Of a stretch of DNA of 64,000 bases, positions 395 to 34,410 are shown in pieces. The position numbers were made by a program, and so were the translations under genes. How positions within the stretch are numbered: the first letter of the stretch is position 1; every line of letters starts with the position of its first letter. The DNA lies in NCBI RefSeq assembly GCF_041911175.1, contig NZ_JAYRPN010000071.1, positions 5,854 to 69,853 of the forward strand, read 5' to 3'. The DNA comes from Tabrizicola sp. Lineage in GTDB: Bacteria > Pseudomonadota > Alphaproteobacteria > Rhodobacterales > Rhodobacteraceae. The notes under the pieces are model-generated. The model was not told where the DNA came from. It saw only the letters and a program-made list of their open reading frames with translations, and did no database searches.

Positions 395-1315
395 ATGCAG
401 CGCGACCGGATGGACGATCTCGTCACCTTTGCCGTGGTCGCGCGCGAACGCAGCTTCACCCGCGCCGCAGCGCAGCTCGGGGTCTCGGCCTCGGCCCTCA
501 GCCAGACCCTGCGCAAGCTGGAGGATCGGCTGGGCATCCGGCTGCTCACACGCACGACGCGCAGCGTGTCACCCACCGAAGCCGGGCAGCGTCTCTTGGC
601 GACGATCCTGCCGCGGTTTGATGAAATCCGAACCGAGCTTGATCGCCTTTCGATCTACCGTGACACGCCTGCCGGTACGATCCGCATCACCGCCAGCGAA
701 TATGCCGCCGAAAGGGTCCTCTGGCCGCGGCTCGCTCCGGTGCTGCGCGCCAATCCCGACATCACGCTGGAGATCTCCATCGACCACGGCTTTCGTGACA
801 TCGTGGCCGACGGCTTCGATGCCGGGGTCCGGCTGGGCGAAAGCGTGGAAAGGGACATGATCGCGGTCAGGATCGGCCCCGATGCGCGTCTGGTGGCCGT
901 GGCGACGCCCGCCTATTTCGCGACCGTCCCGCCGCCGGTGACGCCGAACGACCTGACCGCCCACCGCTGCATCAACCTGCGTTTCGTCTCCACGAGCGCG
1001 CTCTATGCGTGGGAGTTCCGGAAGGGCGACCAGACGCTGCGGGCCAGGGTCAGCGGACAGATCATCTCGAACTCGATCAACGCCTGTCTCACCGCCACTC
1101 TCGACGGCTTCGGCATCGGCTTCCTGCCCGAGGATCTGGTGGCCCCTGCCATCGCCACCGGCGCGCTGGTTCAGGTGCTCGACGACTGGTCCCCGACCTT
1201 TCCCGGCCTGCACCTCTACTATCCCAGCCGCCGCCAGACCTCTCCCGCGTTCCGGCTGGTCCTCGACGCCCTGCGCTACCCGAAAGGCGCTTCGCCAAAC
1301 CTTACCAAATCCTGA
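395..1315 (+). CDS. LysR-family transcriptional regulator (CrgA/PgrR-like)
   Basis: N-terminal HTH (SFTRAAAQLGVSASALSQ..LE.RLG.RLL.RTTRSVSPTEAG) plus substrate-binding domain. Confidence 0.92.
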   Translation: MQRDRMDDLVTFAVVARERSFTRAAAQLGVSASALSQTLRKLEDRLGIRLLTRTTRSVSPTEAGQRLLATILPRFDEIRTELDRLSIYRDTPAGTIRITASEYAAERVLWPRLAPVLRANPDITLEISIDHGFRDIVADGFDAGVRLGESVERDMIAVRIGPDARLVAVATPAYFATVPPPVTPNDLTAHRCINLRFVSTSALYAWEFRKGDQTLRARVSGQIISNSINACLTATLDGFGIGFLPEDLVAPAIATGALVQVLDDWSPTFPGLHLYYPSRRQTSPAFRLVLDALRYPKGASPNLTKS

Positions 1316-1372
1316 ACGTCCACACGCAAGTCCTTGATTTTGGCGGCCCCGAATTTATGTCCACCGTGGACA
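1295..1372 (-). repeat. ~80-bp dispersed element, copy 1 (palindrome TGTCCACCGTGGACA at 1358-1372)
   Basis: Aligns by eye with copies at 5246, 29471 and 34333; shares GTGGACGTTCAGGATTTGG with copy 4. Confidence 0.8.
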
Positions 1373-1380
1373 GCTTCGGC

Positions 1381-2160
1381 TCACGCCGCGATCTCCACCC
1401 AGACCGGCACATGGTCGCTCGGCTTCTCGCCCCCCCGGACCGCCTTGTCGATCCCCGCCGCCTCCAGCCGGTCCGCCGCCTGTGGCGACAGCATCACATG
1501 GTCGATCCGGATGCCGTTGTTCCGCTCCCAGGCCCCCGCCTGATAGTCCCAGAAGGTGTAGACCCCGCGCGAGGGGTCGCTCACCCGCACCGCATCGGTC
1601 AGCCCCAGGTTCGCCAGCCGCCGGAACGCCCCCCGGCTCTCCGGCAGGAAGAGGGCATCCCCGACCCAGGCCTCCGGCCTTGCCGCATCCACCGCCTGCG
1701 GGATCACGTTGTAGTCGCCCAGGCAGACGAACGGCTCTTCCGAGGCCAGCAGCTCCCGCACCCGTGCCTCCATCCGCGCCATCCAGGCGAGCTTGTAGTC
1801 ATATTTGGGCCCCGGCGCCGGGTTGCCGTTCGGCAGGTAGAGGCCGCAGACCCGCACCGGCCGCCCCGCATCGACCACCGCCTCGATCCAGCGCGCCTGC
1901 TCGTCGCTGTCATTGCCGGGTAACCCCCGCCGCACATCCGACAAGGGCAGCTTCGACAGGATCGCCACCCCGTTGAACCCCTTCTGCCCCTGCGTCTCGA
2001 CCCGGTAGCCCATCCCCTCGAACAGCTCGCGCGGGAAGGCCTCGTCCACCGACTTGATCTCCTGCAGGCAGACCACGTCCGGCGCCGCCTGCGCCAGCCA
2101 GGCGGGCAGCGCCTCGGCCCTGGCCTTGATCCCGTTGATGTTGAATGTCGCAAGCTTCAT
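1381..2160 (-). CDS. xth: Exodeoxyribonuclease III
   Basis: Motifs ATFNING, CLQEIK, GDYNV, RIDH, SDH of the ExoIII/APE family. Confidence 0.93.
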   Translation of the reverse strand: MKLATFNINGIKARAEALPAWLAQAAPDVVCLQEIKSVDEAFPRELFEGMGYRVETQGQKGFNGVAILSKLPLSDVRRGLPGNDSDEQARWIEAVVDAGRPVRVCGLYLPNGNPAPGPKYDYKLAWMARMEARVRELLASEEPFVCLGDYNVIPQAVDAARPEAWVGDALFLPESRGAFRRLANLGLTDAVRVSDPSRGVYTFWDYQAGAWERNNGIRIDHVMLSPQAADRLEAAGIDKAVRGGEKPSDHVPVWVEIAA

Positions 2161-2206
2161 GGCCCGGCCCTCCGCCCGGCCACCCTAGGCCGCACCCGGC
2201 CCCAGC

Positions 2207-2923: not shown

Positions 2924-2980
2924 GATCGCCCTCCCTGTTCCGCGCAAAGCTAGCGCGCCAGGCTGGCACGGCCAGAGGGG

Positions 2981-3313
2981 TCAGAGCGAAAAGCTTGTCC
3001 CGCAGCCGCAGCTGGTCTTGGCGTTGGGGTTTTCCACCACGAACCGCGCGCCGATCAGCTCGTCGGTGAAGTCGATCACGGCGTTCGACAGGAAGGGCAG
3101 GCTGACCTGATCGACCAGCACCTTTTGCCCGTCCTTTTCCAGCACCAGATCATCCGCCGCCGGATCGTCCAGCGTGATCGAATACTGGAAGCCCGAACAG
3201 CCGCCGCCATCCACCGCCACGCGCAAGGGGCGGGCATCGCCGGTCGCTTCGGCAATCTCGGCCAGCCGCGCAAAGGCGCGATCCGTGACTTTCGGCGGCA
3301 GCGTCAGTTCCAT
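2981..3313 (-). CDS. erpA: HesB/IscA-family Fe-S cluster insertion protein
   Basis: GGGCSGFQY and TSCGCGTSF motifs; position between xth and dgt. Confidence 0.9.
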   Translation of the reverse strand: MELTLPPKVTDRAFARLAEIAEATGDARPLRVAVDGGGCSGFQYSITLDDPAADDLVLEKDGQKVLVDQVSLPFLSNAVIDFTDELIGARFVVENPNAKTSCGCGTSFSL

Positions 3314-4627: not shown

Positions 4628-5098
4628 TCAGGCAGCCCGCGCCGCCTTGACCCAGATCCCGGCCAGGACCAGCGAGAGGATCGCGTTCCACCCGGCCATC
4701 GAGATCCCCAGCATCTGCCAGGCGATGGCGTCGCAGCGCACCACGGCCGCCACATCCTTCGACGGGTCAAGAAGGTCGGCAGTCGAGATGCCTTCGATGG
4801 ATCCGGCCGTGCAGCTTGCCAGCCCTTCCCACCATTTCTGCTCGACGCCGACGTGGAAGATGCCGATGCCGGCTGTCACCAGCGCCGCGATCACCCCCAG
4901 CCAGGCCAGCCCGCGCCAGCCGGTGGTCAGCGCCACCACCCCGATCAGGATCGCTGCGGCATGCGGCCAGCGTTGCCAGAGGCACAGCTGGCAGGGCGCC
5001 ATTCCACCGATGTACTGGAAGGCAAAGGCCCCGCCCAGAAGTGCGACCGAGCCAAGGGTTGCCAGAAGGATCAGGGTCGGGCGGGTCAGGGTCATCAT
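4628..5098 (-). CDS. dsbB: Disulfide bond formation protein B
   Basis: Membrane protein with PCQLCLWQRWP and a second periplasmic Cys pair (SCT...VRCD). Confidence 0.88.
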   Translation of the reverse strand: MMTLTRPTLILLATLGSVALLGGAFAFQYIGGMAPCQLCLWQRWPHAAAILIGVVALTTGWRGLAWLGVIAALVTAGIGIFHVGVEQKWWEGLASCTAGSIEGISTADLLDPSKDVAAVVRCDAIAWQMLGISMAGWNAILSLVLAGIWVKAARAA

Positions 5099-5245
5099 CG
5101 GCTCTTCGCTGCTTGGAAATTGCGTCGCGACCATAGGCCGGGCGCTGCGGAAGGGGAAGGGGATGCAGGCGGCGCTCCCGCTTTCGTGCATTCGCGCTTC
5201 CGAAGCGACGGGGCAGCGGATAGGATTTCGCGGAAAGGGTCTGCG

Positions 5246-5324
5246 GCACGGGTTAAGGATTCGTGAACGCCCGCGACCAAGGTATTGATTTTGCAAGAGT
5301 ATGGTCGCTTGTCCACTGTGGACA
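5246..5324 (-). repeat. ~80-bp dispersed element, copy 2 (palindrome TGTCCACTGTGGACA at 5310-5324), most divergent copy
   Basis: Same block order and spacing as copies 1, 3 and 4 (AAAATCAA block, then GCGGGCGTTCA 50 bp from the palindrome start). Confidence 0.65.
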
Positions 5325-5351: not shown

Positions 5352-6209
5352 ATGCAGTGGCGCGGTCGCAGGGAAAGTTCCAACATCGAGGACCGCCGCA
5401 GCATGGGCGGCGGAGCGGCCCGGATCGGCGGGATCGGCGGGGCGGGGGCCATCGTCGTCTTCCTGATCGCCATGTTCCTCGGCGTCGATCCCAGCCAGCT
5501 TCTCGGCCCCGGCGGGATGGACCAGGGCACCGGCGGGGCCCCGGTCGAGCTGACCGAGCAGGACAAGGCCGAGGGCCAGTTCGTCTCGGTCGTCCTTGCC
5601 GACACCGAGGAAATCTGGACCCGCGTCTTCAAGGAGCAGCTGAACCGGACCTATACCCCCGCGACGCTGGTCCTCTTCAAGGACGCGACCCCCTCGGCCT
5701 GTGGCGGCGCGTCCGAGGCGACGGGTCCGTTCTACTGCCCGATGGACAAGAAGGTCTACCTCGACACCGGCTTCTTCACGACGCTGCACCAGCGCCTCGG
5801 CGCCAGCGGCGACTTCGCGGCAGCCTACGTCGTCGCCCACGAGATCGGCCACCACGTCCAGGACGAACTTGGCATCCTCTCCAAGGCCAACGAGATCCGG
5901 CAGCAAGTAAGCCAGGAGGAATCGAACGCGATCTCGGTGCAGATCGAGCTGCAGGCCGACTGCCTCTCCGGCATCTGGGCGCGCGAGGCGGCGCAGACCT
6001 TGGGCACCATCGAGCGCGGCGACCTCGAAGAGGCGGTGAACGCCGCCAAGCAGATCGGCGACGACACCCTGCAACGCAACGCCGGCCAGCGCCCGATGCC
6101 GCACACCTTCACCCACGGCACGTCCGAGCAACGCTCGCGCTGGTTCATGATCGGGCTGCAGTCCGGCAAGCTGGCCGATTGCGACACCTTCCAGGCCGAG
6201 AACCTCTGA
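5352..6209 (+). CDS. Neutral zinc metallopeptidase (YpfJ family)
   Basis: MQWRGRRESSNIEDRR start, GPFYCP.D, HEIGHHVQ, ELQADC, FTHGTSEQR. Confidence 0.9.
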   Translation: MQWRGRRESSNIEDRRSMGGGAARIGGIGGAGAIVVFLIAMFLGVDPSQLLGPGGMDQGTGGAPVELTEQDKAEGQFVSVVLADTEEIWTRVFKEQLNRTYTPATLVLFKDATPSACGGASEATGPFYCPMDKKVYLDTGFFTTLHQRLGASGDFAAAYVVAHEIGHHVQDELGILSKANEIRQQVSQEESNAISVQIELQADCLSGIWAREAAQTLGTIERGDLEEAVNAAKQIGDDTLQRNAGQRPMPHTFTHGTSEQRSRWFMIGLQSGKLADCDTFQAENL

Positions 6210-6831: not shown

Positions 6832-7482
6832 ATGTCCATTGGTGACGCCATCCCCGCGCCCTGCGTTCCCGTCGACGCCGCCAAGGCGCCACGTTGCACA
6901 CCCTGCTTCACACCCGGGACGCTGATCACCACGCAGCGCGGCGAGATGCCGGTCGAACTGATCTCGGCAGGAGACCGCGTCGTGACCCGCGACAACGGCA
7001 TCCAGACCGTGCGCTGGGTCGGAAAGACCCAGATGTTCCTGCACGATTTCCAGTCCGAGCCGCATCTTCTGCCGGTCTTCATCCAGCAGGGCTCGCTGGG
7101 CAAGGGCCTGCCCGAGCGCGACATGATGGTCTCGCCCAACCACCGCGTGCTGGTCGCCAACACCCGCGCCACGGTGCGCTATACCGACCGCGAAGTCCTG
7201 GTCGCCGCCAAGCACCTGGCGGCCCAGGGGGTGCATACCGTGCAGTCCAGCGGCACGACCTATGTGCATTTCATGTGCGACCGGCACGAGGTCGTGCTGT
7301 CGAACGGCATCTGGACCGAGAGCTTCCACCCCGAGGACACCTCGCTGAAAGGGATCGGCAATGCGCAGCGGCTGGAAATCTTCGAGATTTTCCCCGAGCT
7401 GAAGACCGAGGCCGGGCGTGCCGCCTATGGCCAGAGCCGACGCATTGCCGAAGGGATGCAGCTGGCCGAAGCCATCGCGTGA
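6832..7482 (+). CDS. Stand-alone Hint (BIL type B-like) domain protein
   Basis: CFTPGTLITT..G...VE.I..GDRVVTRDNG.Q.VRWVG; SPNHRVL; YVHFMCDRHEVV..NGIWTESF. Confidence 0.9.
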   Translation: MSIGDAIPAPCVPVDAAKAPRCTPCFTPGTLITTQRGEMPVELISAGDRVVTRDNGIQTVRWVGKTQMFLHDFQSEPHLLPVFIQQGSLGKGLPERDMMVSPNHRVLVANTRATVRYTDREVLVAAKHLAAQGVHTVQSSGTTYVHFMCDRHEVVLSNGIWTESFHPEDTSLKGIGNAQRLEIFEIFPELKTEAGRAAYGQSRRIAEGMQLAEAIA

Positions 7483-7670: not shown

Positions 7671-10600
7671 ATGGCGACAGTTGTAGGCACAACCGGGAAC
7701 GAGACCCTTCTCGGGAATGATACCGTAGCCGACTCGATCTGGGGCAATAGCGGCACCGACATCATTTATGGCGGCACAGCGGCTGGAACCGGCGGCGGCA
7801 ATGACTTGCTCGACGGTGGTGCCGGGGCTGACGTCATTTATGGCGGCGACGGCAACGACACGCTGATCGGCGGCAACGACACCCTCAACGATACCCTGTT
7901 CGGCGGCGCCGGTACCGACACTGCAGACTACAGCCGCTACCTCACAGCGCTTAGCTCAGGGAGCAGCACGTTTGCGACCAACTCGACCGCCGTCAACGTG
8001 AACCTTGCCACCGGCATTGCAACCGGGCTGGGCACTGACAGTCTTTCCGGGATCGAGAACGTCATCGGCGGCTCGGGCGCCGACACCATCACGGGCGACA
8101 CCCTTGCCAACCGTCTCGACGGCGGCGCCGGGGCCGACCTTATCGACGGTGGCGCAGGGGCCGACTCGCTTTTCGGCGGCACCGGGAATGACACGCTGAT
8201 CGGCGGTGCCGGCAGTGACAGCCTGGACGGCGGGGCCGACTTCGACATTGCCAGCTATGCCACGTCCACCGCCAACATGACCATCACCCTGGGCGGCACC
8301 GCTACGGGTGACGGATCAACGGATACGCTGACTTCCATCGAAGGGGTCATCGGTGGTTCGGGGAACGACACCATCACGGGCGATAGCAGTGCCAACCGTC
8401 TTGAAGGCGGCGACGGCAATGACATCATCGATGGTGCTGGTGGAAGCGACACGCTCTACGGTGACGCCGGGGACGACACGGTTTATGGCGGCACCACAAA
8501 CGCTGCCGATTTCATCTATGGCGGCAACGGAAACGATCTGCTGTTCGGATATGGCGGGGCCGACAGCGTCTATGGCGACGCCGGAAATGACACCCTGTTC
8601 GGCGGCAGTGGCGGCGACCGATTGGACGGCGGCGCGGATTTCGACTTCGTCAACTATTCCGACGTCAGCTCGGACATGACGATCAACCTGACAAGCGGGT
8701 CTGTGTCCGGTGATGGAGCGGATACCCTTGTCAGCATCGAAGGCGTCATCGGCGGCACGGGCGACGACACCATCACCGGCGACGGTGTTGCCAACGTGCT
8801 TGACGGTGGTGCGGGGGCGGACTCCCTCTCGGGCGCCGCCGGGAACGACACCCTTTATGGCGCTGCCGGAAACGACACGATCTATGGCGGCGCGGACGCT
8901 GACCTTGTGTATGGCGGGGACGATCAGGACCGGCTCTATGGCAATGACGGTCTGGACACGCTTTATGGCGGTCTGGCGAACGACACGCTGGATGGCGGGG
9001 CAGGCGACGATACCCTGGTCGGAGGGGCAGGCGCAGATTCGCTGATTGGCGGGACTGGGACCGATACGGCGGATTACAGCGCGTCGGGCTCTGCCGTTAA
9101 CGTCAACATGAGCGACACACTGGCCGAGAGCGGCGGCGACGCGGCGGGCGACACCCTGTCCGGGATCGAGAATCTGACCGGCAGCAACCTGAACGACACG
9201 CTGACAGGTGACAACGGCGGGAACGTGATCGATGGCGGGGCGAACAGTGACCTTGTCCACGGCGGGGCGGGCAACGACACGCTGATTGGCGGCGCTGGCA
9301 ACGACACCATTGATGGTGGGGTAGACAGTGACACAATATTTGGCGGATCTGGCGACGACCTGCTTTACGGCGGCACCGCTGCACCTGTCGGTACGACATA
9401 CATCATAAACGGCAATTTCGACTCCGGCAGTTCCAACTGGTCGGGCACCGATATCGAGGTCAACCCAGAATCTTCATACCTTTCGCCGGGTACGGCTGGC
9501 AACGTCGCGGAGATTGATGGGAATAGCGGCCAGATCACGGTGATGAAGCAAAGCTTCGTTATCGACGGCGCGTTGACGGCGCAATTGACTTTCAAAGGCA
9601 TCGTTCGGACCGCGGGCACCGTAAATACGGATGGATACCGGGTTGACGTCCTGGATGCGTCTGGTGCCGTGATCGCGACCATGAACGTGCTACCGGGGTC
9701 CAAGACCGTTTGGGCGGATTACACTCTCGGCATAAACTTCCCCGCAGCCGGTACCTACACCCTGCAATTTACCGAACTCGGCAACAACGACAGCACCGGC
9801 GCGTTGGTCGATGACATACAGATCACCTCGACGGCAGTTCTTCAGAACGACCTGGGCGACGCGCTGTATGGCGAGGCAGGGAATGACACGCTCTACGGCG
9901 AGGCTGGGGCCGACATTGTCTCCGGCGGCGACAATGCGGACCTCGCCTATGGCGGGACCGAGGCCGACACGATCTACGGCGACGCCGGGAACGATACGCT
10001 CTACGGCGATGCCGGCGATGACCGGCTTTTCGGCGGTGACAACAGCGACCTGGCTTATGGCGGCGTTGGTCTGGATACCTTGTATGGTGATGCCGGATCC
10101 GACACGCTTTACGGTGGCGACAATGCGGACCTCGCCTATGGCGGAACCGAGGCCGACGCGATCTACGGCGACGCCGGGAACGATACGCTCTACGGCGATG
10201 CTGGTGACGACACGCTCTATGGCGGAGCGGGCAACGACAGCCTGGAGGCCGGGGTCGGGAACGATGTCACCTATGGCGACGACGGCGACGACACGATCCG
10301 CTACGGCTCGGGCGATGACACCGTCTATGGCGGGGCGGGCAACGACAACATCGACGATGAGTCCGGGACCACCCATGCCGGAGCGAACCTGCTTTATGGC
10401 GGCGCAGGGAACGATACGATCTGGGCTGGCGAAAATGACGATACGCTTCATGGCGACGCGGGCAACGATACCCTGTACGGCGAGAACGGGAACGACCGGT
10501 TTTACGGCGGAGCCAATGATGATCTTCTGATCGGCGGAACCGGCAACGACACGCTTTATGGCGGTGCGGGGCTGGACGACATCTACGCTGGCGATGATCG

Positions 10601-11465
10601 CGACCTGATCCACGTCACCTTTACCAAGCCCGGCGATGAATCTGTCGCGGGCGATGCCGTCGCGAACGATATCCTTGGCAACGAGTCGGTCGACGGTGGC
10701 AGTGGCCCCGGAACGACCGCGGACAACGACACGCTGACGGTCGACATCACGGGCATGGGTTGGACCCGGATGGACCTGGTCTATACCTCGGCCAACCATG
10801 AAAACGGGATCATCACCTTCTTCAACGGGGCCGGTGTCCAGGTTGGCACGCTGACCTTCACCGATATCGAGAACCTGGTGATCGTCTGCTTTACCGCAGG
10901 CACGCAGATCATGACCGAGCGTGGCGGGGTTGCGGTCGAGACGCTGGTGCCGGGTGACCTGGTTGTCACGCGCGACAACGGGTTGCAGCCGCTGCGCTGG
11001 GTCGGCTCGCGGCACTTGTCCCGGGCGGAATTGCAGGCGCGGCCCGCGTTGCAGCCGGTGCGCATTTCCGCCGGGGCGCTTCCTGAAGGGCCGGATCGGT
11101 CGATGCTCGTCTCGCCACAGCACCGCGTCCTGATCGAAGGTATGCGGGCCGAGATGTACTTTGGCGAAAGCGAAGTGCTGGTTCCGGCCAAGCACCTGAC
11201 CGGGCTGGCGGAAATCACCCGCGCCTTGCCAGCCGAAGGGGTGACCTACGTCCATATCCTGTTCGACCGGCATGAGATCGTGCAATCCGACGGGATCTGG
11301 ACCGAAAGCTTCCAGCCGGCCGAGCGGACGCTGAACGCGCTGGACGAGGCTGCGCGGATCGAGGTGCTGGAGCTGTTCCCGGAACTGGCCGCCGATGCCA
11401 CCGGGTTCCCGGCTGCGCGGCTGTCGCTCAAGGCGCATGAGGCGAAGGTGCTGGTATCAGGCTGA
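7671..11465 (+). CDS. RTX Ca-binding repeat protein with a central lectin-like domain and a C-terminal Hint domain (1264 aa)
   Basis: Dozens of GGxGxDxLx nonapeptides; CFTAGTQIMT Hint start near 10887; SPQHRVL; YVHILFDRHEIV.SDGIWTESF. Confidence 0.93.
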   Translation: MATVVGTTGNETLLGNDTVADSIWGNSGTDIIYGGTAAGTGGGNDLLDGGAGADVIYGGDGNDTLIGGNDTLNDTLFGGAGTDTADYSRYLTALSSGSSTFATNSTAVNVNLATGIATGLGTDSLSGIENVIGGSGADTITGDTLANRLDGGAGADLIDGGAGADSLFGGTGNDTLIGGAGSDSLDGGADFDIASYATSTANMTITLGGTATGDGSTDTLTSIEGVIGGSGNDTITGDSSANRLEGGDGNDIIDGAGGSDTLYGDAGDDTVYGGTTNAADFIYGGNGNDLLFGYGGADSVYGDAGNDTLFGGSGGDRLDGGADFDFVNYSDVSSDMTINLTSGSVSGDGADTLVSIEGVIGGTGDDTITGDGVANVLDGGAGADSLSGAAGNDTLYGAAGNDTIYGGADADLVYGGDDQDRLYGNDGLDTLYGGLANDTLDGGAGDDTLVGGAGADSLIGGTGTDTADYSASGSAVNVNMSDTLAESGGDAAGDTLSGIENLTGSNLNDTLTGDNGGNVIDGGANSDLVHGGAGNDTLIGGAGNDTIDGGVDSDTIFGGSGDDLLYGGTAAPVGTTYIINGNFDSGSSNWSGTDIEVNPESSYLSPGTAGNVAEIDGNSGQITVMKQSFVIDGALTAQLTFKGIVRTAGTVNTDGYRVDVLDASGAVIATMNVLPGSKTVWADYTLGINFPAAGTYTLQFTELGNNDSTGALVDDIQITSTAVLQNDLGDALYGEAGNDTLYGEAGADIVSGGDNADLAYGGTEADTIYGDAGNDTLYGDAGDDRLFGGDNSDLAYGGVGLDTLYGDAGSDTLYGGDNADLAYGGTEADAIYGDAGNDTLYGDAGDDTLYGGAGNDSLEAGVGNDVTYGDDGDDTIRYGSGDDTVYGGAGNDNIDDESGTTHAGANLLYGGAGNDTIWAGENDDTLHGDAGNDTLYGENGNDRFYGGANDDLLIGGTGNDTLYGGAGLDDIYAGDDRDLIHVTFTKPGDESVAGDAVANDILGNESVDGGSGPGTTADNDTLTVDITGMGWTRMDLVYTSANHENGIITFFNGAGVQVGTLTFTDIENLVIVCFTAGTQIMTERGGVAVETLVPGDLVVTRDNGLQPLRWVGSRHLSRAELQARPALQPVRISAGALPEGPDRSMLVSPQHRVLIEGMRAEMYFGESEVLVPAKHLTGLAEITRALPAEGVTYVHILFDRHEIVQSDGIWTESFQPAERTLNALDEAARIEVLELFPELAADATGFPAARLSLKAHEAKVLVSG
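9927..10203 (+). repeat. Intragenic near-identical duplication with a 189-bp period (7 RTX nonapeptides)
   Basis: ggcgacaatgcggacctcgcctatggcgg..accgaggccgac..gatctacggcgacgccgggaacgatacgctctacggcgatgc occurs at 9927 and 10116. Confidence 0.85.
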
Positions 11466-19630: not shown

Positions 19631-19646
19631 TGTCGTCATTCCCGGA

Positions 19647-20849: not shown

Positions 20850-20970
20850 AACAGCCTTCCTTTTTGGAACAAGTCCGCTGGCCACCCTATTCTTGGGCGC
20901 AACAGAAGAAAAGGGTCCGCCCGATCAAGGCAGAGCACTGCAAACCCTGGGACTTGCACGGTCTTGGCGA

Positions 20971-20996: not shown

Positions 20997-21022
20997 CCGG
21001 GATCAGGCGCCGTGACGCCGGA

Positions 21023-22219
21023 TCAGCGGAACTGGACGGTCTCGTACTTGCCGTCCTTGACCACGAACTCCTTGTAGCGGCCAGCCGATTCCCCCGGTCC
21101 GATCAGGGTCACGCCCGAAGCGCCGTCGTAGTCGATGGCGGTGCCGGCTGCGATCAGCTCCAGCGCCTTGCCCAGCTCGCCCGGAAGGATCTTGACGCCG
21201 GAACCGTCAGCCGGCCCGTTGGCGATCTCCATGATCTTTTCCTTGTAGACGTTCGAGTCGGTCGAGCCCGAAGCCTCCATCGCCAGCATGATCAGCGCGG
21301 CGGCGTCATAGCTTTCCATCGTGTAGGGCGAGGTGGCGTCATAGGCCGGATCGTTCTTCTTGCCCATTTCCGCCAGGATCGCCGCGCCGGGGCTGTCGGA
21401 CTGCGCCACCTGGCCGTAGGAGCCGTCGAGCGCCGGGCCGATCGCTGCGGGCAGCGAATCGCCGACCATGCCGCCCGGCAGGCCGAAGGTGGTGAAGGCG
21501 CCCGAGTCGAGCGAGGCCTGGATGATGCCCTTGCCGCCCTGGTCCAGATAGCCTGCGACGACAAGGATATCGCCCCCCGCCGCGGCCAGCGCCGCGACTT
21601 CCGCCGAATAGTCGGCCTTGCCGTCGTCATGGGCAGCGTTGATCGTCACGGTGCCGCCCTGGGCGGTGAAACCGGCGGCGATCGCTTCGGCCAGTCCCTT
21701 GCCGTAGTCCGAGTTGGAATAGGTCAGCGCGATGGACTTCACGCCTTTTTCCTTCAGGATCTCGCCCATGACTTCACCTTCGCGCGCGTCCGAGGGCGCG
21801 GTGCGGAAGAAGAGGCCATTGTCCGGGTCGGCAGTCAGAGCGGGCGAGGTCGCCGAGGGCGAGACCATCACGATGCCGTTCGGCATGGCGACGTTGGTCA
21901 GCATCGCGCGGGTGACGCCCGAGCAGTCGCCGCCGATGATGCCCTTGACGCCTTCCGCGGTGATCGCGCGTTCAGCGGCAGCGGTCGCGGCAGCGGCGTC
22001 GGTGCAGGTGTCATCGCCACGCACCGAGGAGTAGGTGTTCTTCGCCTTGCCCGAAGCGTTCACTTCGGCCATCGCGGCTTCGGCCGCGTTCGCCATGTGC
22101 CCGGTCAAGGATTCGATGGGGCCGGTGAAGCCGATGAGGATGCCGATCTTGACGTCCTCGGCGGACACGGCACCAGCCATCAGCGCGCAGGCCGAAGCGG
22201 CCAGCAGAAGTTTCTTCAT
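21023..22219 (-). CDS. ABC transporter substrate-binding protein, paralog B
   Basis: Same family and closely similar to 19647-20849. Confidence 0.93.
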   Translation of the reverse strand: MKKLLLAASACALMAGAVSAEDVKIGILIGFTGPIESLTGHMANAAEAAMAEVNASGKAKNTYSSVRGDDTCTDAAAATAAAERAITAEGVKGIIGGDCSGVTRAMLTNVAMPNGIVMVSPSATSPALTADPDNGLFFRTAPSDAREGEVMGEILKEKGVKSIALTYSNSDYGKGLAEAIAAGFTAQGGTVTINAAHDDGKADYSAEVAALAAAGGDILVVAGYLDQGGKGIIQASLDSGAFTTFGLPGGMVGDSLPAAIGPALDGSYGQVAQSDSPGAAILAEMGKKNDPAYDATSPYTMESYDAAALIMLAMEASGSTDSNVYKEKIMEIANGPADGSGVKILPGELGKALELIAAGTAIDYDGASGVTLIGPGESAGRYKEFVVKDGKYETVQFR

Positions 22220-28428: not shown

Positions 28429-29445
28429 ATGACCGAGCCTGAGCTTCAGCGCCTGTTGTCCGGCCTGCCGCTGCCCGCGATGCTGGTCCGGCATGACGAT
28501 CAGGTCCTGGCCGTGAACGCCCCCGGCCACGCGCTTCTGGGCGACGGCATCACTGGCCGCCACCCCGCGATGGCCGTCCGCGCGCCTGCGGTGCTGGAGG
28601 CGATGGCGGCAGTGGCCCGCGATGGTGGCGTGCAGGAGAGCCGGATGGTGCTCCGCCGCGACGGGCAGGAGGCGGTGCTGCAGGTCACCCTCTCCGACCA
28701 GGGCGAGGGGTTGGTGCTGGCCGTCTTCCGCGACGCGACCGAGGAGGAGCGGGCGGGCGAGATGCGGCGGGATTTCGTGGCCAACGTCTCCCATGAACTG
28801 CGCACGCCCCTGACCGCGCTGATGGGCTTCATCGAGACGCTGAAGAATGCCGCGAAGGACGACCCCGCCGCGCGGCAGCGGTTCCTCGGGATCATGGAGG
28901 CCGAGGCGGGGCGGATGAACCGGCTGGTGCGCGACCTTCTCCAGCTTTCCCGGGTGGAGGCGGAGGAGCGGGTGCGCCCGAAGGAGGCGGTGGACCTGCG
29001 GGGGCTGCTGGAGGGTGTGATCTCCGCGCTGAAGGGGGTGGCGGAGCGTAAGGGGGACCGGGTGGAGCTGGTGGGGGAGGCGGTGACGGTGCCGGGGGAT
29101 CATGACCAGCTGGTGCAGGTTTTCACCAACCTGATCGAGAACGCGCTGAAATACGGGGGCGCGGGGCAGGTGGTGCGGGTCTCGCTTGCCCCGGAGGAGA
29201 CGGTGCGCGGCCCGGCGGTGCGGGTCGAGGTCGTGGACGAGGGGGAGGGGATCGATCCGGTCCACCTGCCGCGGCTGACCGAGCGGTTCTACCGGGTCGA
29301 TTCCCATCGATCCCGCGAGATGGGGGGGACGGGGCTGGGGCTGGCCATCGTGAAGCACATCGTGAGCCGCCACCGGGGCTGGCTGCGGGTGGAGAGCGTG
29401 GTGGACGAGGGGAGCCGGTTCTCGGTGGTGCTGCCGGTGGGGTGA
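28429..29445 (+). CDS. phoR: PhoR-like cytoplasmic sensor histidine kinase (PAS-HisKA-HATPase)
   Basis: RRDFVANVSHELRTPLT H-box, NLIENALKY, RLTERFYRVD..RSR..GGTGLGLAIVKH; no TM segments. Confidence 0.85.
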   Translation: MTEPELQRLLSGLPLPAMLVRHDDQVLAVNAPGHALLGDGITGRHPAMAVRAPAVLEAMAAVARDGGVQESRMVLRRDGQEAVLQVTLSDQGEGLVLAVFRDATEEERAGEMRRDFVANVSHELRTPLTALMGFIETLKNAAKDDPAARQRFLGIMEAEAGRMNRLVRDLLQLSRVEAEERVRPKEAVDLRGLLEGVISALKGVAERKGDRVELVGEAVTVPGDHDQLVQVFTNLIENALKYGGAGQVVRVSLAPEETVRGPAVRVEVVDEGEGIDPVHLPRLTERFYRVDSHRSREMGGTGLGLAIVKHIVSRHRGWLRVESVVDEGSRFSVVLPVG

Positions 29446-29470
29446 GGTGGGGGCCGCAAAGGACTCCGGC

Positions 29471-29550
29471 TGTCCACGGTGGACATTTTCGGATTATGGT
29501 TTGCAAGCAATGGGTTGCGCGTGGGCGATAGGGGTTTATTAAGGGGGTGG
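29471..29550 (+). repeat. ~80-bp dispersed element, copy 3 (palindrome TGTCCACGGTGGACA at 29471-29485)
   Basis: Block order and spacing match the other copies; lies between phoR and the low-GC TIR gene. Confidence 0.75.
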
Positions 29551-29652
29551 TTAATGAAGTCAATATTGCGGAGATTCGGCTTTCAGCACCATCTCTGAAG
29601 TAAACTCAAGAAAGTTCTGCGCGTTTTGAACGTCGAAGCCAAGATTGGTCCT

Positions 29653-32211
29653 CTAGTTTCGTCGAACGCGAGCAATAATCTGACCGAGTTCTCCAGACGC
29701 TTGGAGTTCCGGTGCAAACCCGTTCGCCAAGGCAACGGGCTGGCCGCTTGACAGCAAGGCACGCACATACGTCTCCGTCAGCGCGTTTACGTAAGACGGC
29801 CATATCGCTTCGTTGGAGGGCTGGCCCCGTGCTTCGTCAAGCTCTCTGACGGCCTGAGCTGCGGCCACCGACTCGCCGAAACTTGCCATCATCCGCCAAC
29901 GTTCGGCCTTAAGTTGAAACCGCTCTGGATCAAGTCTGATCGCTTGGTCCATACTCTCGATGGCAGCCGGAAAGTCTCCCGTGAACTCCGCTTCCTTTGC
30001 ATAGATTTCGAATGGCGCCGCATCCGCGCCGGGATGACGTTCTAAGTCGCCAAGTGCATTCTCGAATAGGCTGTCGATATTGTCCGGCACGGGGTCGTTC
30101 GATTTATCGCGACGAAACTTCCACTCCAGGTACACATTGGCGAGAGCACTCAAGCTGAAAACCGTGCGCTTCAAACCAACGTAAATTTTGGCGTAGCGCT
30201 CTGCCTTCTCGAAATCCGGTTTCCAGCTGGCCAGAATACACCTAACAAGCGGTCTATAAATGTACTCCAATCGTCGATTTTTGTCACGATTCAGAGAAAT
30301 CGCTCGCTCGTATGCCTTGATCGCTTCGGGGAAGTTGCGCTGATACTCGTGCAGATCGGCAGCCAGAAATGCAGCGATGGGTTTGCTCCGGTGGTCTGCT
30401 TCCAGCCTTGTGATGCAAGCTTCTGCTTCAGAGTATTTTCGCATTCTTGTCGCTGTCAAGCAAAAATAGCGATCAATCTCAACTTTAGACGCGTCGCGAA
30501 ACTCGGCACGACTGTCATGTGCTTTCTTGAGAAGCCGATAGGCAGGTTGCCATTTCCGTGCATGATAGAGCCTGATTCCGGCCTGAAACCAATGCGCTGC
30601 CGAAACAAAGGCGCCCAAGCTGTTCGGCAGACTGTCAACGCCGGATAGTAGCGCGGCGTTCACCCTTGCTTCGAGCCGGATGTACTCATGATTTCCCTCG
30701 TCCGAAACCGTTGTCATCTCAAAGGGACTCGCTGCGAATGCTTTCTGCGCCCCTGCGGCCCACTGCACAAGTTCTGGACGAATTAGTTGACGGTTCAAAC
30801 GACTAGCCAGCAAGGGAGTCAGTCGGTAGATGTCATCGGTTTCTCTTTCGACCAAGCCAAGATTCAGCAACCGGCTGAGCACGCGAATTATTGAGACTGA
30901 AGGTGTAACCGCCTTCTCTATGTCGACGATATGACACGGTGTGACATCATTCAGAAAGAGAAGCGTCTTCTGTGCATTCAGGTCATCGCGAAGCTGTGCA
31001 AAAGCCCACCGTACAAATGCAGTGATGCTCTCCGCCATCCGGTCGCCACGCTGTGCCAACATTGCCTCGACGTTGTCGAAACTGTCGATCCGGGCGGCGG
31101 ACCGGACGATACCCACAAGAAACCCGACGGTGCCGTTCGCTGCCAGCGCGACGCGCTTTACATCTTCGTCGCTCCAGCGAGACGGGTTTGTGTCAAAGTA
31201 GCCCACAAGTTCATAGCAAAAGTTTGTCATCTCCTCTTCACCCATGGTGGGCACTCGGAAGGCGACCATCTTCTCCGAGCATTTGATCAGCCTGGTGCCC
31301 GACAGAGGTTGCTGAGACAATACGAACAGTTTTGGTCTCGTAGCTGGAGAAAGTGCCAGCGAAACATCGTCCAACCACTCGGGAAGCTCAACCTCCTCTT
31401 GGATGATCCGACCGTGTCGAAGAATCAGATAATTTCCGGCCTGATATATACGTTCAATCGCTGTTGCTACTGCGGCGGTATCGCCTTCTGCAGTCCCTTG
31501 AAGTATGGCCTGCAATGTTTCCAGGTTCGCACCAAAAGCCTCGCTTTCTATCCTAAGCAGAAGCTGTCGAGGCAACGTTGCTTCATTGATCTCGATCACA
31601 ATGGCCGCACCGTTCGGGGTCAGATTGCGATTAAGGTCCGACACCAACCCTTCGCGGCCAACGCCATTGAATCCCGAAACCCAGCAGGCCGGTTGCAGGG
31701 TGAACCTGTCACGCTGGAGACTTTTGCGCAACGCACGAACAAGAGTGTCTCGCTGCATGCGGGGATGGTCTGACTGGAGGAGCGGCTCGGCTACGGAAGA
31801 GATGAGTGAAACTGCTTTTTGGACTGATGCATTCGCCTCGGAGGCTCGATAGTCAGCTAGGGGCCTGAGTGCTTCGAAAACTGGCTTCAAAGCTTCGTCC
31901 ATTCCGTCGCGCCAGGAAATCGGGTAATCGTCGAGGCGGGCGATCACCGGCTTCACCAAACCAAGTCGGTACAGTGAAGCTGCCTGTTCGATTTCGCGAA
32001 CGCAGCCGACGCTGCTTGGGTAGTTCCGCGACCAAAAGACTACAAATACTCGTGCTTTTGGCAGTTCTTGAAGCCCAATTTCATCCCACATATTGGCGCC
32101 GAGACGGCCAGTTTTTGAGTATAGGTAGACCCAATCTGACGGGAACGCCTCCCAGGCGCTCTCGGCAAATTCAATATCTTTTCCTGAGACTGAATAGAAC
32201 AATGGGTACAT
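29653..32211 (-). CDS. TIR - STAND-like NTPase (degenerate) - winged helix - TPR protein; NLR-like anti-phage candidate
   Basis: TIR pattern LFYSVSGKD...VFVVFWSRNY.SS.GCVREIEQA; Walker A-like GFNGVGRE; wHTH LSRLLNLGLVER...YRLTPLL; helical TPR-like C-terminus; spot-count GC about 40-60% vs ~68% in flanks. Confidence 0.75.
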   Translation of the reverse strand: MYPLFYSVSGKDIEFAESAWEAFPSDWVYLYSKTGRLGANMWDEIGLQELPKARVFVVFWSRNYPSSVGCVREIEQAASLYRLGLVKPVIARLDDYPISWRDGMDEALKPVFEALRPLADYRASEANASVQKAVSLISSVAEPLLQSDHPRMQRDTLVRALRKSLQRDRFTLQPACWVSGFNGVGREGLVSDLNRNLTPNGAAIVIEINEATLPRQLLLRIESEAFGANLETLQAILQGTAEGDTAAVATAIERIYQAGNYLILRHGRIIQEEVELPEWLDDVSLALSPATRPKLFVLSQQPLSGTRLIKCSEKMVAFRVPTMGEEEMTNFCYELVGYFDTNPSRWSDEDVKRVALAANGTVGFLVGIVRSAARIDSFDNVEAMLAQRGDRMAESITAFVRWAFAQLRDDLNAQKTLLFLNDVTPCHIVDIEKAVTPSVSIIRVLSRLLNLGLVERETDDIYRLTPLLASRLNRQLIRPELVQWAAGAQKAFAASPFEMTTVSDEGNHEYIRLEARVNAALLSGVDSLPNSLGAFVSAAHWFQAGIRLYHARKWQPAYRLLKKAHDSRAEFRDASKVEIDRYFCLTATRMRKYSEAEACITRLEADHRSKPIAAFLAADLHEYQRNFPEAIKAYERAISLNRDKNRRLEYIYRPLVRCILASWKPDFEKAERYAKIYVGLKRTVFSLSALANVYLEWKFRRDKSNDPVPDNIDSLFENALGDLERHPGADAAPFEIYAKEAEFTGDFPAAIESMDQAIRLDPERFQLKAERWRMMASFGESVAAAQAVRELDEARGQPSNEAIWPSYVNALTETYVRALLSSGQPVALANGFAPELQASGELGQIIARVRRN

Positions 32212-32278
32212 AGCTTCGGTGCTCCAACGCCAAGCGCCAGAGCAAAGCTATCGTGACCAGATCCGTTTGGGAAGTCCC

Positions 32279-33211
32279 TCACAACCTCCCCAACCGCTCC
32301 GTCAGGAGCCGGTAGAACCCCTCCCGGTCCACGCCGCCCATGAACATCGCGTTGGGCTCGCGACCCGTCACCCGCCACCAGTCGGCGACGGTCATGCCGA
32401 GGGTCAGCTCCGATCCCGTCTCGATCTCCACGTTGATGTGGCGGCCGTGGAAGAGGGCGGGCTCCAGGAGGTAGGCGATCACGCAGGGGTCGTGCAGGGG
32501 GGCGCCTTCGCTGCCATACTTGGCGGTGTCGAAGCGTTCGAAGAAGTCGGTCCAGCTGGCGACGGCCTGGCCGACGGGGGTGCCTAAGCTGCGCATCTCC
32601 TCCACCCACGCCCGCGAGGTCAGGGCCTTGTGGGTCACGTCCAAGGGCATGACCACAAGGAGAACGCCGGATTTGAACACGATGTCAGCGGCTTCCGGGT
32701 CGACATAGATGTTGAATTCGGCCGCCGGGGTGATGTTGCCGCCCTCGAAATAGCCACCGCCCATCAGGACGATCTCGGCCACCTTCGGCACGATGTCGGG
32801 GGCGCGGCGGAAGGCGGTGGCGATGTTGGTGAGCGGTCCGAGCGGGCAGAGGGTGATGCTGCCGGAAGGATGGGCGCGCAGCGTATCGATCAGGTAGTCG
32901 ACGGCGTGGCCGGGCTGCAGGGGATGGGTCGGCTCGGGCAGGGGAACGCCGTCCAGCCCGGTCTTGCCGTGGACATGCTCGGCGGTGACGAGCTTGCGGG
33001 TCATCGGCGCGTCGCAGCCGGCGTAGACCGGGGTGTCGCGACGGGCGAGTTCCACGATGACGCGGGCGTTCTTCTGGGTGAGGGGGAGCGGCACGTTGCC
33101 CGCGACGGCGGTGAGGGCGAGGACCTCAAGCTCCGGGCTGGCCAGCGCGAGGAGGATGGCGACGGCGTCGTCCTGGCCGGGGTCGGTGTCGATGATGATC
33201 TTGCGCGGCAT
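32279..33211 (-). CDS. Inosine/uridine-preferring nucleoside hydrolase
   Basis: IIIDTDPGQDDA, GNITPAAEFNIYVDPEAA, PLHDP. Confidence 0.94.
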   Translation of the reverse strand: MPRKIIIDTDPGQDDAVAILLALASPELEVLALTAVAGNVPLPLTQKNARVIVELARRDTPVYAGCDAPMTRKLVTAEHVHGKTGLDGVPLPEPTHPLQPGHAVDYLIDTLRAHPSGSITLCPLGPLTNIATAFRRAPDIVPKVAEIVLMGGGYFEGGNITPAAEFNIYVDPEAADIVFKSGVLLVVMPLDVTHKALTSRAWVEEMRSLGTPVGQAVASWTDFFERFDTAKYGSEGAPLHDPCVIAYLLEPALFHGRHINVEIETGSELTLGMTVADWWRVTGREPNAMFMGGVDREGFYRLLTERLGRL

Positions 33212-33302
33212 TGGGGTCTCCTTTCCGGGAAGGAGAGGGCGGCGAAGGGGATTTGTCCAGAGGGCGGCTTGTGGCAGGCTGGGGAAAACGGGGGGTGCCG
33301 CG

Positions 33303-34331
33303 ATGGAGATACTGGTCGGGACGACGAAGGGGCTGTTCGTGCTGGAGGACGGTCGGGTCGAGGGGCCGTTCTGCGAGGGCTGGCCGATCAACCACGCCAT
33401 CGGGCGCGGGGGCGAGATTTTCGCGGCGGGGGGCTCGGGCTGGCTCGGGGCCGGGGTGTGGCGGCGGGTCGGGGGCGAGTGGGCGGTGTCGAAGGGGCCG
33501 TTCGAGGGGGCGGAGCAGCTCTGGTCGCTGTGTCTGGATCGCGACCGGCTGCTGGCGGGGTCGAAGCCGGCCTATCTGTATGAGAGCCTCGATGGGGGCG
33601 GGACCTGGCGGCGGCTGGAGGCGCTGACCGACCAGCCGGGGGCGGACCAGTGGATGCCGGGGGCGGCGGGGCTGACGCTGCACACGATCCTTGCCGATCA
33701 GAAGGGGGGCCTCTGGGTGGGCATCTCGGCGGCGGGGGTGTTCGAGTCGCGCGACGGCGGCGCGAGTTGGGCGATGCGGAACCGGCGGGGGAACCGGGCG
33801 GGGCCGGCGGGGGCGCTCGCGCGGGACTGGGGGGACGGGGTGGAGTTCCGGCAGGAGGACGAGATTTTCTCCTGCGTCCACAACCTGGCCTTCGGGGCGG
33901 CGGAGGGGCTGATCTACATGCAGAACCACCAGGGGGTCTATCGGTCGCGCGACGGGGGCGCCGTCTGGGAGGAGGTGACGGAAGGGTTGCCCTCGACTTT
34001 CGGCTTCCCGGTGGCGGCGCATCCGTCGAAGCCCGGGGTGGCCTGGGTGTTCCCGCTGAACGGGGATTCGATCGGGCGCTATCCGGTGGAGGGGCGGGCG
34101 CTGGTCTGGAAGACGGAGGATGGCGGGGAAAGCTGGGCGGGGAAGGGCAAGGGACTGCCGGAGCGGGACTGCTTCTTCACGGTGCTGCGGCAGGGGATGG
34201 CCTCGACCGACGGCGGGGTGGCCTTCGGGACGAATTCGGGGTCGGTCTACCTCAGCCGGGACGAGGGGGAGAGCTGGGAGGAGGTCGCCAGGCATCTGCC
34301 GACGGTGTTGTCGGTGGAGTTCATGGGGTAG
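33303..34331 (+). CDS. BNR/Asp-box beta-propeller protein (WD40/YVTN/BNR-like, sialidase-like fold)
   Basis: ILVGTTKGLF start; repeated S.DGG.TW / SRDGG.SW / SRDEGESW Asp boxes. Confidence 0.85.
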   Translation: MEILVGTTKGLFVLEDGRVEGPFCEGWPINHAIGRGGEIFAAGGSGWLGAGVWRRVGGEWAVSKGPFEGAEQLWSLCLDRDRLLAGSKPAYLYESLDGGGTWRRLEALTDQPGADQWMPGAAGLTLHTILADQKGGLWVGISAAGVFESRDGGASWAMRNRRGNRAGPAGALARDWGDGVEFRQEDEIFSCVHNLAFGAAEGLIYMQNHQGVYRSRDGGAVWEEVTEGLPSTFGFPVAAHPSKPGVAWVFPLNGDSIGRYPVEGRALVWKTEDGGESWAGKGKGLPERDCFFTVLRQGMASTDGGVAFGTNSGSVYLSRDEGESWEEVARHLPTVLSVEFMG

Positions 34332-34332
34332 G

Positions 34333-34410
34333 TGTCCACGGTGGACAGAATTTTCGACGTAACGAAAACAATGCGTTATCCGTGGACGTTCAGGATTTGG
34401 AAAGGTTTCG
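34333..34410 (+). repeat. ~80-bp dispersed element, copy 4 (palindrome TGTCCACGGTGGACA at 34333-34347)
   Basis: Begins 2 nt after the BNR gene stop; shares 19 identical nt GTGGACGTTCAGGATTTGG with copy 1 at the same 49-bp offset. Confidence 0.8.

Follow-up and report, generated by a model that had tools for sequence, protein, structure and literature searches.

What is the element of about 80 bp that occurs four times in the non-coding DNA of a Tabrizicola sp. contig, and what use could be made of it at the gene ends where it stands? The stretch analysed, called the window below, comprises 64,000 nucleotides (NZ_JAYRPN010000071.1, positions 5,854 to 69,853 of the forward strand), and its initial annotation had described four copies of one modular layout, each with its orientation. 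This description proved correct for all four, each containing a palindrome, a spacer of 16-17 nt unrelated between copies, a block of the type AAAATCAAnnnnTTG, the heptamer GYGGRCG and a tail with AAG or AAC. The analysis shows a conserved multi-block DNA element at gene ends, with its architecture, range, placement, selection, copying history and proximity to RAYT genes. With a probability of about 0.5 we read it as a mosaic extragenic repeat resembling BIME-1/RIB, which would act at gene ends as a protein-binding site bent by integration host factor (IHF). Mosaic repeats of the repetitive extragenic palindrome (REP) and BIME type are well studied in enterobacteria and pseudomonads, and hardly in Rhodobacterales/Paracoccaceae.

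Architecture, range and conservation

The exact 15-mer TGTCCACNGTGGACA was found four times in the window (1358-1372, 5310-5324, 29471-29485 and 34333-34347), against a chance expectation of 0.13, and four or more copies were reached in 0 of 100 shuffles. No additional match with up to two mismatches was present in the window, and a profile built from 98 family members recovered the same four copies with nhmmer and no weaker or degenerate ones there. The copies are numbered by window position, 1 and 2 lying on the minus strand and 3 and 4 on the plus strand; L followed by a number denotes a fetched locus of a relative that was compared with the window. The parts and settings of the copies are as follows, the genes flanking copies 1 and 2 having been assigned by Pfam.

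1289-1372, minus strand: copy 1, whole element (nhmmer E=2e-14), set between the convergent genes xthA (1381-2160, minus) and a LysR gene (395-1315, plus)
1358-1372, no strand: copy 1 palindrome TGTCCACGGTGGACA, 8 nt past the xthA stop codon
1327-1339, minus strand: copy 1 IHF-consensus 13-mer AATCAAGGACTTG, an exact match to WATCAANNNNTTR
1317-1323, minus strand: copy 1 third half-site GTGGACG
5243-5324, minus strand: copy 2, whole element (nhmmer E=3e-15), in the divergent spacer between dsbB (4628-5191, minus) and a zinc-peptidase gene (5352-6209, plus)
5310-5324, no strand: copy 2 palindrome TGTCCACAGTGGACA
5278-5290, minus strand: copy 2 IHF-consensus 13-mer AATCAATACCTTG, an exact match
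5268-5274, minus strand: copy 2 third half-site GCGGGCG
29471-29556, plus strand: copy 3, whole element with the extension GGGGGTGGTTAATG of its subfamily (nhmmer E=6e-15), 3' of a histidine-kinase gene (28429-29445, plus) and of a GC-rich GCAA-loop hairpin (29448-29468)
29471-29485, no strand: copy 3 palindrome TGTCCACGGTGGACA
29505-29517, plus strand: copy 3 IHF-like 13-mer AAGCAATGGGTTG, one mismatch
29521-29527, plus strand: copy 3 third half-site GTGGGCG
34333-34416, plus strand: copy 4, whole element (nhmmer E=1.5e-13), beginning 1 nt past the TAG stop of a BNR-repeat gene (33156-34331, plus)
34333-34347, no strand: copy 4 palindrome TGTCCACGGTGGACA
34366-34378, plus strand: copy 4 IHF-like 13-mer AAACAATGCGTTA, one mismatch
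34382-34388, plus strand: copy 4 third half-site GTGGACG

Conservation sets in with the first palindrome base and has faded some 80 nt further on, and the family consensus consists of TGTCCACGGTGGACA, a spacer of 16/17 nt and gataTCAAtggcTTGgtCGcGGgCGTTagGGatTTgttAAc. Five parts can be distinguished: the perfect 15-bp palindrome, the free spacer of 16-17 nt, a 13-nt match to the IHF consensus, the third half-site GYGGRC, and a tail of the form TTnn-N7-nnAAC. IHF is a DNA-bending protein with the consensus WATCAANNNNTTR, for which a chance match is expected at 2e-5 per place; at one fixed place in the element it is matched exactly in 27 of the 98 copies and with at most one mismatch in 60. The third half-site is a direct repeat of the right arm of the palindrome (GCGGGC in 31, GCGGAC in 28, GTGGGC in 28 and GTGGAC in 11 of the 98 copies). 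In copies 1 to 4 the heptamer reads GTGGACG, GCGGGCG, GTGGGCG and GTGGACG and starts 49-50 nt from the palindrome start, as had been noted together with the 19 identical nucleotides, GTGGACGTTCAGGATTTGG, that copies 1 and 4 have in common. The tail is A/T-phased and holds TT and AA 12 nt apart. A CtrA box, TTAA-N7-TTAA(C), was considered for the tail and discarded, since none of the 98 tails has this consensus exactly and 43 have it with at most one mismatch. Resemblances of the half-site to a DnaA box, parS or repABC parS were likewise considered, and dropped for wrong spacing or for mismatches at key positions.

A scan of 185,579 species genomes with the pattern palindrome, N34-35 and GYGGRCG gave at least 112 stretches. 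Among the matches listed, about 95 were true elements, almost all in Tabrizicola spp., in 'Rhodobacter' sp. SY28-1 or Har01 and in metagenome-assembled genomes of other Paracoccaceae, with 6-8 copies per genome; about 15 matches in Amycolatopsis, Streptomyces and Saccharothrix were rejected as chance matches in coding sequences, which do not contain the CAA..TT block. An independent scan of metagenome contigs used the non-palindromic blocks alone (TCAA-N4-TTG-N2-CGNGGNCGTT-N11-AA), and in about 100 true matches the palindrome was again found 21-22 nt upstream. Among the matches listed, the element is a dispersed repeat family confined to Tabrizicola and close Paracoccaceae, and the additional copies that had been proposed as a subject for a genome-wide motif search are indeed numerous there. 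The 1.41 Mb of fetched loci contained 23 extra copies, most of them imperfect, or about one per 60 kb; since the family density is of this order and made up mostly of imperfect copies, the four perfect copies in 64 kb represent a local excess.

The identical XthA protein was found on activated-sludge metagenome contigs only, and the DNA runs holding the region of the window are sludge and wastewater metagenomes. Plasmid and phage collections contained no parent or similar element. Ten IMG/VR matches (L260-L269), considered as an autonomous parent on a phage, belong to one phage family with a chance match to the search pattern, having TGTCCACTGTGGACA and then GCGGACG at the right distance without the remaining blocks. 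Over the window only a tRNA reached the gathering threshold of Rfam, and neither the motif nor Rhodobacter or Paracoccus repeats of its kind were found in the searchable literature. The family of about 80 bp is undescribed, yet ordinary in kind, being an extragenic mosaic repeat.

Many copies occupy one orthologous site in up to eight organisms, and both flanks are syntenic in about two thirds of the ortholog groups. In ortholog pairs not ascertained for the block measured, identity was 0.94 in the palindrome against 0.43 in the spacer, 0.80 at the specified IHF positions against 0.38 at the four N4 positions, and 0.74-0.83 in the tail. The spacer is saturated at orthologous sites, and the conservation of the blocks beside it shows purifying selection on every block. 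The earlier view that conserved spacing around a free spacer fits several protein-binding sites is consistent with the conservation of the specified IHF positions and not of the N4 positions between them. Three genomes have an intact copy at the site between ArsC and DUF2177, three a degenerate one and two a nearly erased one. The ortholog of copy 2 is intact in L136 and L149 and degenerate in L107 and L131, SY28-1 being a genome with the degenerate form; copy 3 has orthologs in L007, L016, L055 and L110 and a paralogous site in L029 and L043; and the ortholog of copy 4 is present in L055 and not in L110, which also misses the downstream flank.

No clean empty site was found among the orthologous loci compared, which carried decayed copies or missed one flank, and four apparent empty sites (L043, L029, L244, L245) are degenerate remnants of copies. 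Terminal inverted repeats are also lacking in the element, its left end being the palindrome and its right end TTnn-N7-nnAAC followed by a faint 'tg.c'. Non-orthologous copies have a mean spacer identity of 0.34, with the best pairs at about 0.8, and spacer subfamilies of the ATTTCCGGATTAT, AAACGCTGATG and GATTTTTCG types can be recognized. One such unit, of the copy 3 type, stands behind two unrelated genes in T. aquatica with about 80% identity and comprises the GC-rich GCAA-loop hairpin before the palindrome and the extension GGTGGTTAAT after the tail. Subfamilies and paralogous copies show an old spread by copying, with vertical inheritance now: the family multiplied by copy-and-paste in an ancestor of the genus and was then inherited vertically, under purifying selection at many sites and with decay at others. 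The suggestion of a non-autonomous repeat with several protein-binding sites is correct in its main lines; past multiplication supports mobility, and the lack of terminal inverted repeats does not.

In the metagenome lineage Ga0209793 the right arm of the palindrome is GCGGGCA in all four sampled copies, two of which are orthologous to canonical copies, and the left arm is TGCCC(A/G)C in three, TGTCCAC being retained in the fourth. Two of the three copies with a changed left arm carry the full palindrome TGCCCGCGCGCGGGCA, and the blocks downstream are unchanged. These arms point to a concerted change of the palindrome.

As a separate observation, the GC-rich GCAA-loop hairpin GGGGGCCGCAAAGGACTCC at window 29448-29468, between the kinase stop codon and copy 3, was also found beside the paralogous copy in L043 and L029 and beside the L112 copy, there at the opposite end; the hairpin may be a small repeat in its own right or a terminator.

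Placement at gene ends and gene turnover

The copies are extragenic. Gene orientations were taken from a crude caller that relies on GC3, and its calls for the window were verified with Pfam. Convergent spacers made up 45-53% of the element-bearing spacers in both independent samples against a baseline of 14%, a 3.5-fold enrichment; divergent spacers accounted for 5% against 18%, and the remainder were co-directional. For genes reading toward the palindrome end, the stop codon lay within 5 nt of the palindrome in 78 of 110 cases, the median distance being 2-3 nt. The stop codon belongs to the gene and not to the element, because L110 is without copy 4 and the same protein nevertheless ends there with the same codon; copies that have a gene start as left neighbour show no TGA at that place. 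In co-directional pairs both orientations of the element occur (17 and 20), so that the IHF-type block, third half-site and tail are not tied to the transcribed strand, which argues for a role at the DNA level rather than for a strand-specific one in RNA.

Such an RNA-level role was weighed in the form of a hairpin in the 3' untranslated region (3'UTR), serving as terminator, exonuclease barrier or ribosome-stalling signal, with the rest of the element being a linear RNA motif or part of a 3'UTR-derived small RNA. The position of the hairpin at a median of 2-3 nt past stop codons speaks for it, as does the finding that E. coli REPs are terminator-stabilisers of the 3'UTR and that, for convergent genes, a REP between the two correlates with their higher expression (bioRxiv 10.64898/2026.03.23.713779). 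Moreover, variants of length and loop leave the outer five stem pairs intact in 93-99% of the copies of the block-anchored sample, whereas the inner two pairs fail in 20 of 88. The palindrome hairpin, however, consists of 6 bp and a triloop at merely -5.7 kcal/mol, RNAalifold yielded no other consensus structure on either strand, and covariation was not significant (3 double changes, equalled by 57 of 500 shuffles). A scan for hairpins followed by T-runs passed none of the four window copies, in agreement with the earlier statement that the element is not a simple terminator, and Rfam gave no match over 29300-34600 at E up to 5. Folding of the whole element was not consistently better than in shuffles (z-scores of -2.2, -2.4, +0.2 and -0.5). 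On the folding, covariation and Rfam results a structured RNA was set aside. Together with the two orientations in co-directional pairs, these results make an RNA-level function distinctly improbable. The two alternative folds proposed earlier for the distal GTGGAC apply to copy 4, whose minimum-energy fold pairs it, and not to the family, in which this sequence occurs in 11 of 98 copies. A sigma-70 promoter was rejected as well: on either strand a weak match was seen in copy 2 alone, with the palindrome serving as the -35 element, and a promoter does not agree with the way the flanking genes are oriented.

The 54 genes that end at a palindrome represent 67 Pfam families, all of them housekeeping and at conserved chromosomal sites, and include topoisomerase I, acyl-CoA dehydrogenases, MttB, CobO and XthA. 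Genes that start beside copies or lie between two copies include EF-P with EpmA, UvrD with pyruvate carboxylase, pirin and IspH. A tyrosine recombinase, integrase, transposase or cassette array was not seen among the sampled neighbour genes. The functional diversity of these housekeeping neighbours rules out a regulon and a cassette system, and an operator was rejected on the same grounds, no regulator or transposase standing among them. Neighbours of accessory appearance, which the initial annotation had seen at copies 1, 3 and 4, are indeed found at copies 3 and 4; the genes at copy 1 are not of this kind.

At copy 1 the LysR-family gene (395-1315, plus) terminates inside the tail of the element, at window 1295-1315, its last seven or so codons and the TGA stop being the reverse strand of the copy (..AACCTTACCAAATCCTGA). 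In L001 (1978-2842, JGI 3300009870), a metagenome contig of the same organism on which the xthA sequence is identical, gene calling divides the LysR gene into two open reading frames (ORFs), HTH_1 and LysR_substrate apart, either through a frameshift variant or through an assembly error.

A recombination site of attC or att type, at which a tyrosine recombinase would trade neighbouring genes, was proposed from the same four copies, and copy 3 offers the best case. Homology between the window and its relatives breaks exactly at the end of this copy and resumes at the stop of a nucleoside hydrolase gene. The intervening island of 2.7 kb (29557-32278) has a GC content of 0.50-0.57 against about 0.68 and contains a gene (29653-32211, minus) for a protein of 852 aa with weak TIR_2 (E 7e-4), weak AAA_16 and clear TPR matches, for which PADLOC gave no match. 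In L110 the equivalent slot is filled by GmrSD_N and HEPN genes, in L055 by a T5orf172 gene, and it looks like a defence-gene hotspot. After copy 4, an ORF of 133 aa (34489-34890), hydrophobic by eye and without a Pfam match, precedes a trypsin-like protease gene; it is peculiar to the window, being missing from the orthologous spacer of L055 (179 nt against 637 nt). One further tail-side slot, at the L071 copy, contains a DNA methylase gene, the others holding ordinary genes. Of about 24 ortholog groups, about 8 have their synteny interrupted immediately on the tail side, whereas breaks on the opposite side come at a rate of roughly one per 7 kb. This left-right asymmetry, however, follows trivially from the contact of the palindrome with the stop codon.

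No second or partial copy closes the island of copy 3, and no island of the window is flanked by two copies. Furthermore, the arms of the palindrome stand 1 bp apart and leave no crossover region of 6-8 bp. The element resembles an integron attC site in starting within a few nucleotides of the preceding stop codon, in its size (60-140 bp for attC) and in having a variable centre between conserved features, but it is without the R''/L''-L'/R' symmetry, no integrase or cassette arrays were seen, and it follows housekeeping genes whose chromosomal sites are fixed. Housekeeping neighbours, shared orthologous sites in up to eight organisms and two-flank synteny in about two thirds of the groups indicate that gene capture is not a general property of the element. 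Some copies border hotspots and most are stable landmarks; the hotspot proposal is thus borne out for one or two copies, above all at the slot after copy 3, and not for the family as a whole. The route through a tyrosine recombinase, in view of the diverse housekeeping neighbours in place of cassettes, is very unlikely.

RAYT genes and comparison with known repeats

The alternative enzyme of the initial annotation, an HUH nuclease of the RAYT type, was approached by tblastn with E. coli RayT followed by NCBIfam, and eight RAYT-anchored loci were examined. RAYT homologs are numerous, and two element loci carry RAYT genes that NCBIfam confirmed: L023 (5527-6081, T. aquatica), whose protein scores 156.7 bits with NF047646 against a cutoff of 80, and L112 (2-217). 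The gene lies in the conserved contexts SnoaL-GNAT-RAYT-infA and ArsC-DUF2177-(PG_binding)-RAYT (L023, L112, L237-L259). In both of these contexts the element of about 80 bp immediately precedes RAYT and shares its orientation, between GNAT and RAYT in L023 and L237 and between PG_binding and RAYT in L257 and L244. The 60 kb of RAYT-anchored loci contain 6 copies against about 1 per 60 kb elsewhere, an enrichment of about 6-fold. The link of proximity between element and RAYT is real.

The RAYT stop is abutted or closely trailed, in each of the eight loci, by a different hairpin with a GTAG tag, GTAGGGTGGGGTTCAACCCCACCCTAC. These hairpins are of the GTAGGGTGGGG..CCCCACCCTAC type and often form an inverted pair, and one of the same type stands also upstream of RAYT in L245 and L258; in most loci, L023 and L237 excepted, the TAG stop of RAYT falls inside the GTAG tag. 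Its presence at every RAYT stop identifies this hairpin, and not the element of about 80 bp, as the cognate REP. A regular-expression search found no GTAG-type REP of the RAYT loci in the window. The proposal of a RAYT enzyme is therefore supported as to the presence of RAYT genes in the clade and the enrichment of the element beside them, and unsupported in that these genes possess a separate repeat of their own.

In seven of the eight loci (L023 5480-5500, with equivalents in L237, L243, L244, L245, L251 and L257) the RAYT ATG is preceded, at 25-45 nt, by the conserved sequence GTAAC-N6-TTAAC(C), which resembles the tail of the element; L258 is without the GTAAC half. A regulator of the RAYT gene probably binds this sequence.

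These observations are those on which the element could be regarded as the proliferated upstream end of a RAYT unit, mobilised by the RAYT of the clade, formerly or to this day, as a second substrate beside the GTAG REPs, with hairpin, IHF site and regulatory tail arranged as at an IS200-type left end. The RAYT genes of T. aquatica and L112, the same-orientation placement in two contexts, the local enrichment and the tail-like sequence before the ATG all favour such a module, as does the identity of about 80% between the copy 3 subfamily and the copy at the PG_binding site of L029 and L043; in these two loci the copy follows the same PG_binding gene and RAYT was undetected. Against it stand the different hairpin at the RAYT stop in 8 of 8 loci and the lack of a copy within 3-5 kb in 4 of 8; nor does the element have a GTAG or CGTC tag beyond its stem. 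Copies that are nearly identical within one genome are also missing (spacer identity 0.34 between non-orthologous copies), which indicates no recent activity of the element. A module of this kind is unlikely.

Beside this, an inverted pair of GTAG-type REPs (GTAGGGTGTGCTACAGCGCACC ... GGTGCGCTGTAGCGCACCCTAC) was observed right after the element, downstream of copy 3 orthologs, in L055 (3850-3960), L110 (about 1790-1900) and L007, where it occupies the position of the TIR-like island of the window.

REPs are by definition imperfect palindromes of 20-40 nt, tagged with GTAG or CGTC outside the stem; they are found between convergent genes and no more than 20 bp from the 3' ends of ORFs (PMC3733652). 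The REP/REPIN-RAYT systems include GTAG- and CGTC(TGTC)-tagged superfamilies (PMC3733652, PMC2817692, PMC3116915). The element shares with them the extragenic position near ORF 3' ends, the enrichment between convergent genes, a lineage-specific sequence with vertical inheritance, RAYT genes in the same genomes and near some copies, and a palindrome beginning with TGTC, the variant listed for CGTC REPs. In the element, however, this TGTC pairs with GACA inside the stem and is not a 5' tag, the stem has 6-7 bp instead of 8-9 bp beginning with AT, and there is no CCA tail. Its copies are singletons and not inverted pairs, with one tail-to-tail pair among 20 two-copy loci, and RAYT's own flanking repeat is the separate GTAG hairpin. 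Unlike REP/REPIN-RAYT systems, the saturated spacers leave no master-sequence population.

BIME-1 has a conserved long linker with an IHF site (PMC3333891), and in the summaries of Boccard & Prentki 1993 given by PMC3333891 and PMC3733652 the palindromic units of E. coli BIME-1/RIB (RIP) flank an L linker containing the IHF site. The likeness of the present element lies in an extragenic mosaic of about 80-100 bp with a palindrome and a conserved linker that fits the IHF consensus. Further shared features are the occurrence as single copies where transcription units end (3'), a number between tens and about a hundred per genome, and the restriction to the chromosome. At the level of sequence both the IHF-consensus linker and the gene-end and convergent placement of BIME-1/RIB are found again. 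The differences are nonetheless considerable: there is no sequence similarity, one perfect 7-1-7 palindrome with a half-site takes the place of two imperfect inverted REPs of about 35 nt, nothing palindromic being present in the tail to form a second unit around the linker, and TTnn-N7-nnAAC is an extra part. The element is, moreover, not the RAYT-flanking repeat, and its copies are conserved at orthologous sites across species.

Correia elements of Neisseria are miniature inverted-repeat transposable elements with an IHF site, terminal inverted repeats of 26 bp and a TA target duplication. The element is likewise a small dispersed non-coding sequence beside genes with an internal IHF consensus, but it has no terminal inverted repeats in its 80 bp or so.

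A proposed nucleoprotein structure and further features of the window

If the BIME-1/RIB-like reading is followed, the element would act as double-stranded DNA. The consensus match and the pattern of conservation suggest that IHF bends its centre, and from the conserved weak hairpin and the repeated half-site we infer a second protein that may occupy the palindrome and the third half-site. The two would form a compact nucleoprotein plug directly behind stop codons, chiefly between convergent genes, which could limit read-through and antisense transcription, handle transcription-driven supercoiling, or do both; such a barrier or topological effect is likely purely by analogy with REP/BIME biology (PMC3333891; bioRxiv 10.64898/2026.03.23.713779). 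In mRNA the weak hairpin might add a modest effect at the 3' end.

Several observations weigh against this model. The element has one short perfect palindrome rather than two long imperfect REPs, and a copy number of tens per genome is low for REP/BIME. The palindrome is 15, 16 or 18 nt long depending on lineage (variants TGTCCACGCRGGACA, TGACCACGCGTGGACA, GCGCCACGCGTGGCGC and TGCCCGCGCGCGGGCA), which is easier to reconcile with a hairpin than with a rigid dimer site as long as the protein that binds does not vary along with it. The spacing of 2-3 nt from the stop codon is tighter than any proposed function needs, and the decay of some orthologous copies to near erasure shows that selection is not universal. 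Enrichment beside RAYT hints at a link to the enzyme for which the model has no need. In metatranscriptome RNA runs the organism is represented by sparse contigs, none of them over the element.

It is tempting to speculate further that a dedicated sequence-specific protein joins IHF in a complex on three half-sites behind stop codons, the copies being genus-wide selected barriers to transcription or topology, and not merely selfish DNA, with a co-evolving recognition sequence, of which the changed arms in Ga0209793 would be an example. This stronger proposal is unlikely; if it held, the position upstream of RAYT could mean insulation or control of that gene.

With tens of copies per genome, many of them orthologous, and a neutral spacer as internal control, selection can be read block by block in this family, which also separates three features usually confounded in REP biology, namely RAYT's own REP, an IHF-type site and coupling to stop codons. 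Should proteins bind the putative IHF site and the palindrome in vivo, structures bent by IHF at the ends of genes would have evolved independently in alphaproteobacteria, and the view that such repeats serve the host would be strengthened. The profile can be used as a marker in the annotation of Tabrizicola-like genomes from activated sludge, and flags the apparent defence-gene hotspot after copy 3.

Other repeated sequences were noted in the window. The region 6832-7482 encodes a protein of 216 aa with Hint_2 only, followed at 7671-11465 by a protein of 1264 aa that combines a C-terminal Hint_2 domain with 25 stretches of RTX nonapeptide repeats; these RTX repeats make up the bulk of the direct repeats reported for the window. 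The minus strand also bears a tandem pair of paralogous genes (19642-20885 and 21018-22219; 412 and 398 aa) with 76-81% DNA identity, and within the ORF 47261-48025 at least five tandem units of 18 nt (CGCGACAACCGGGGCGAT-like, 47603-47728) encode a repeated charged hexapeptide.

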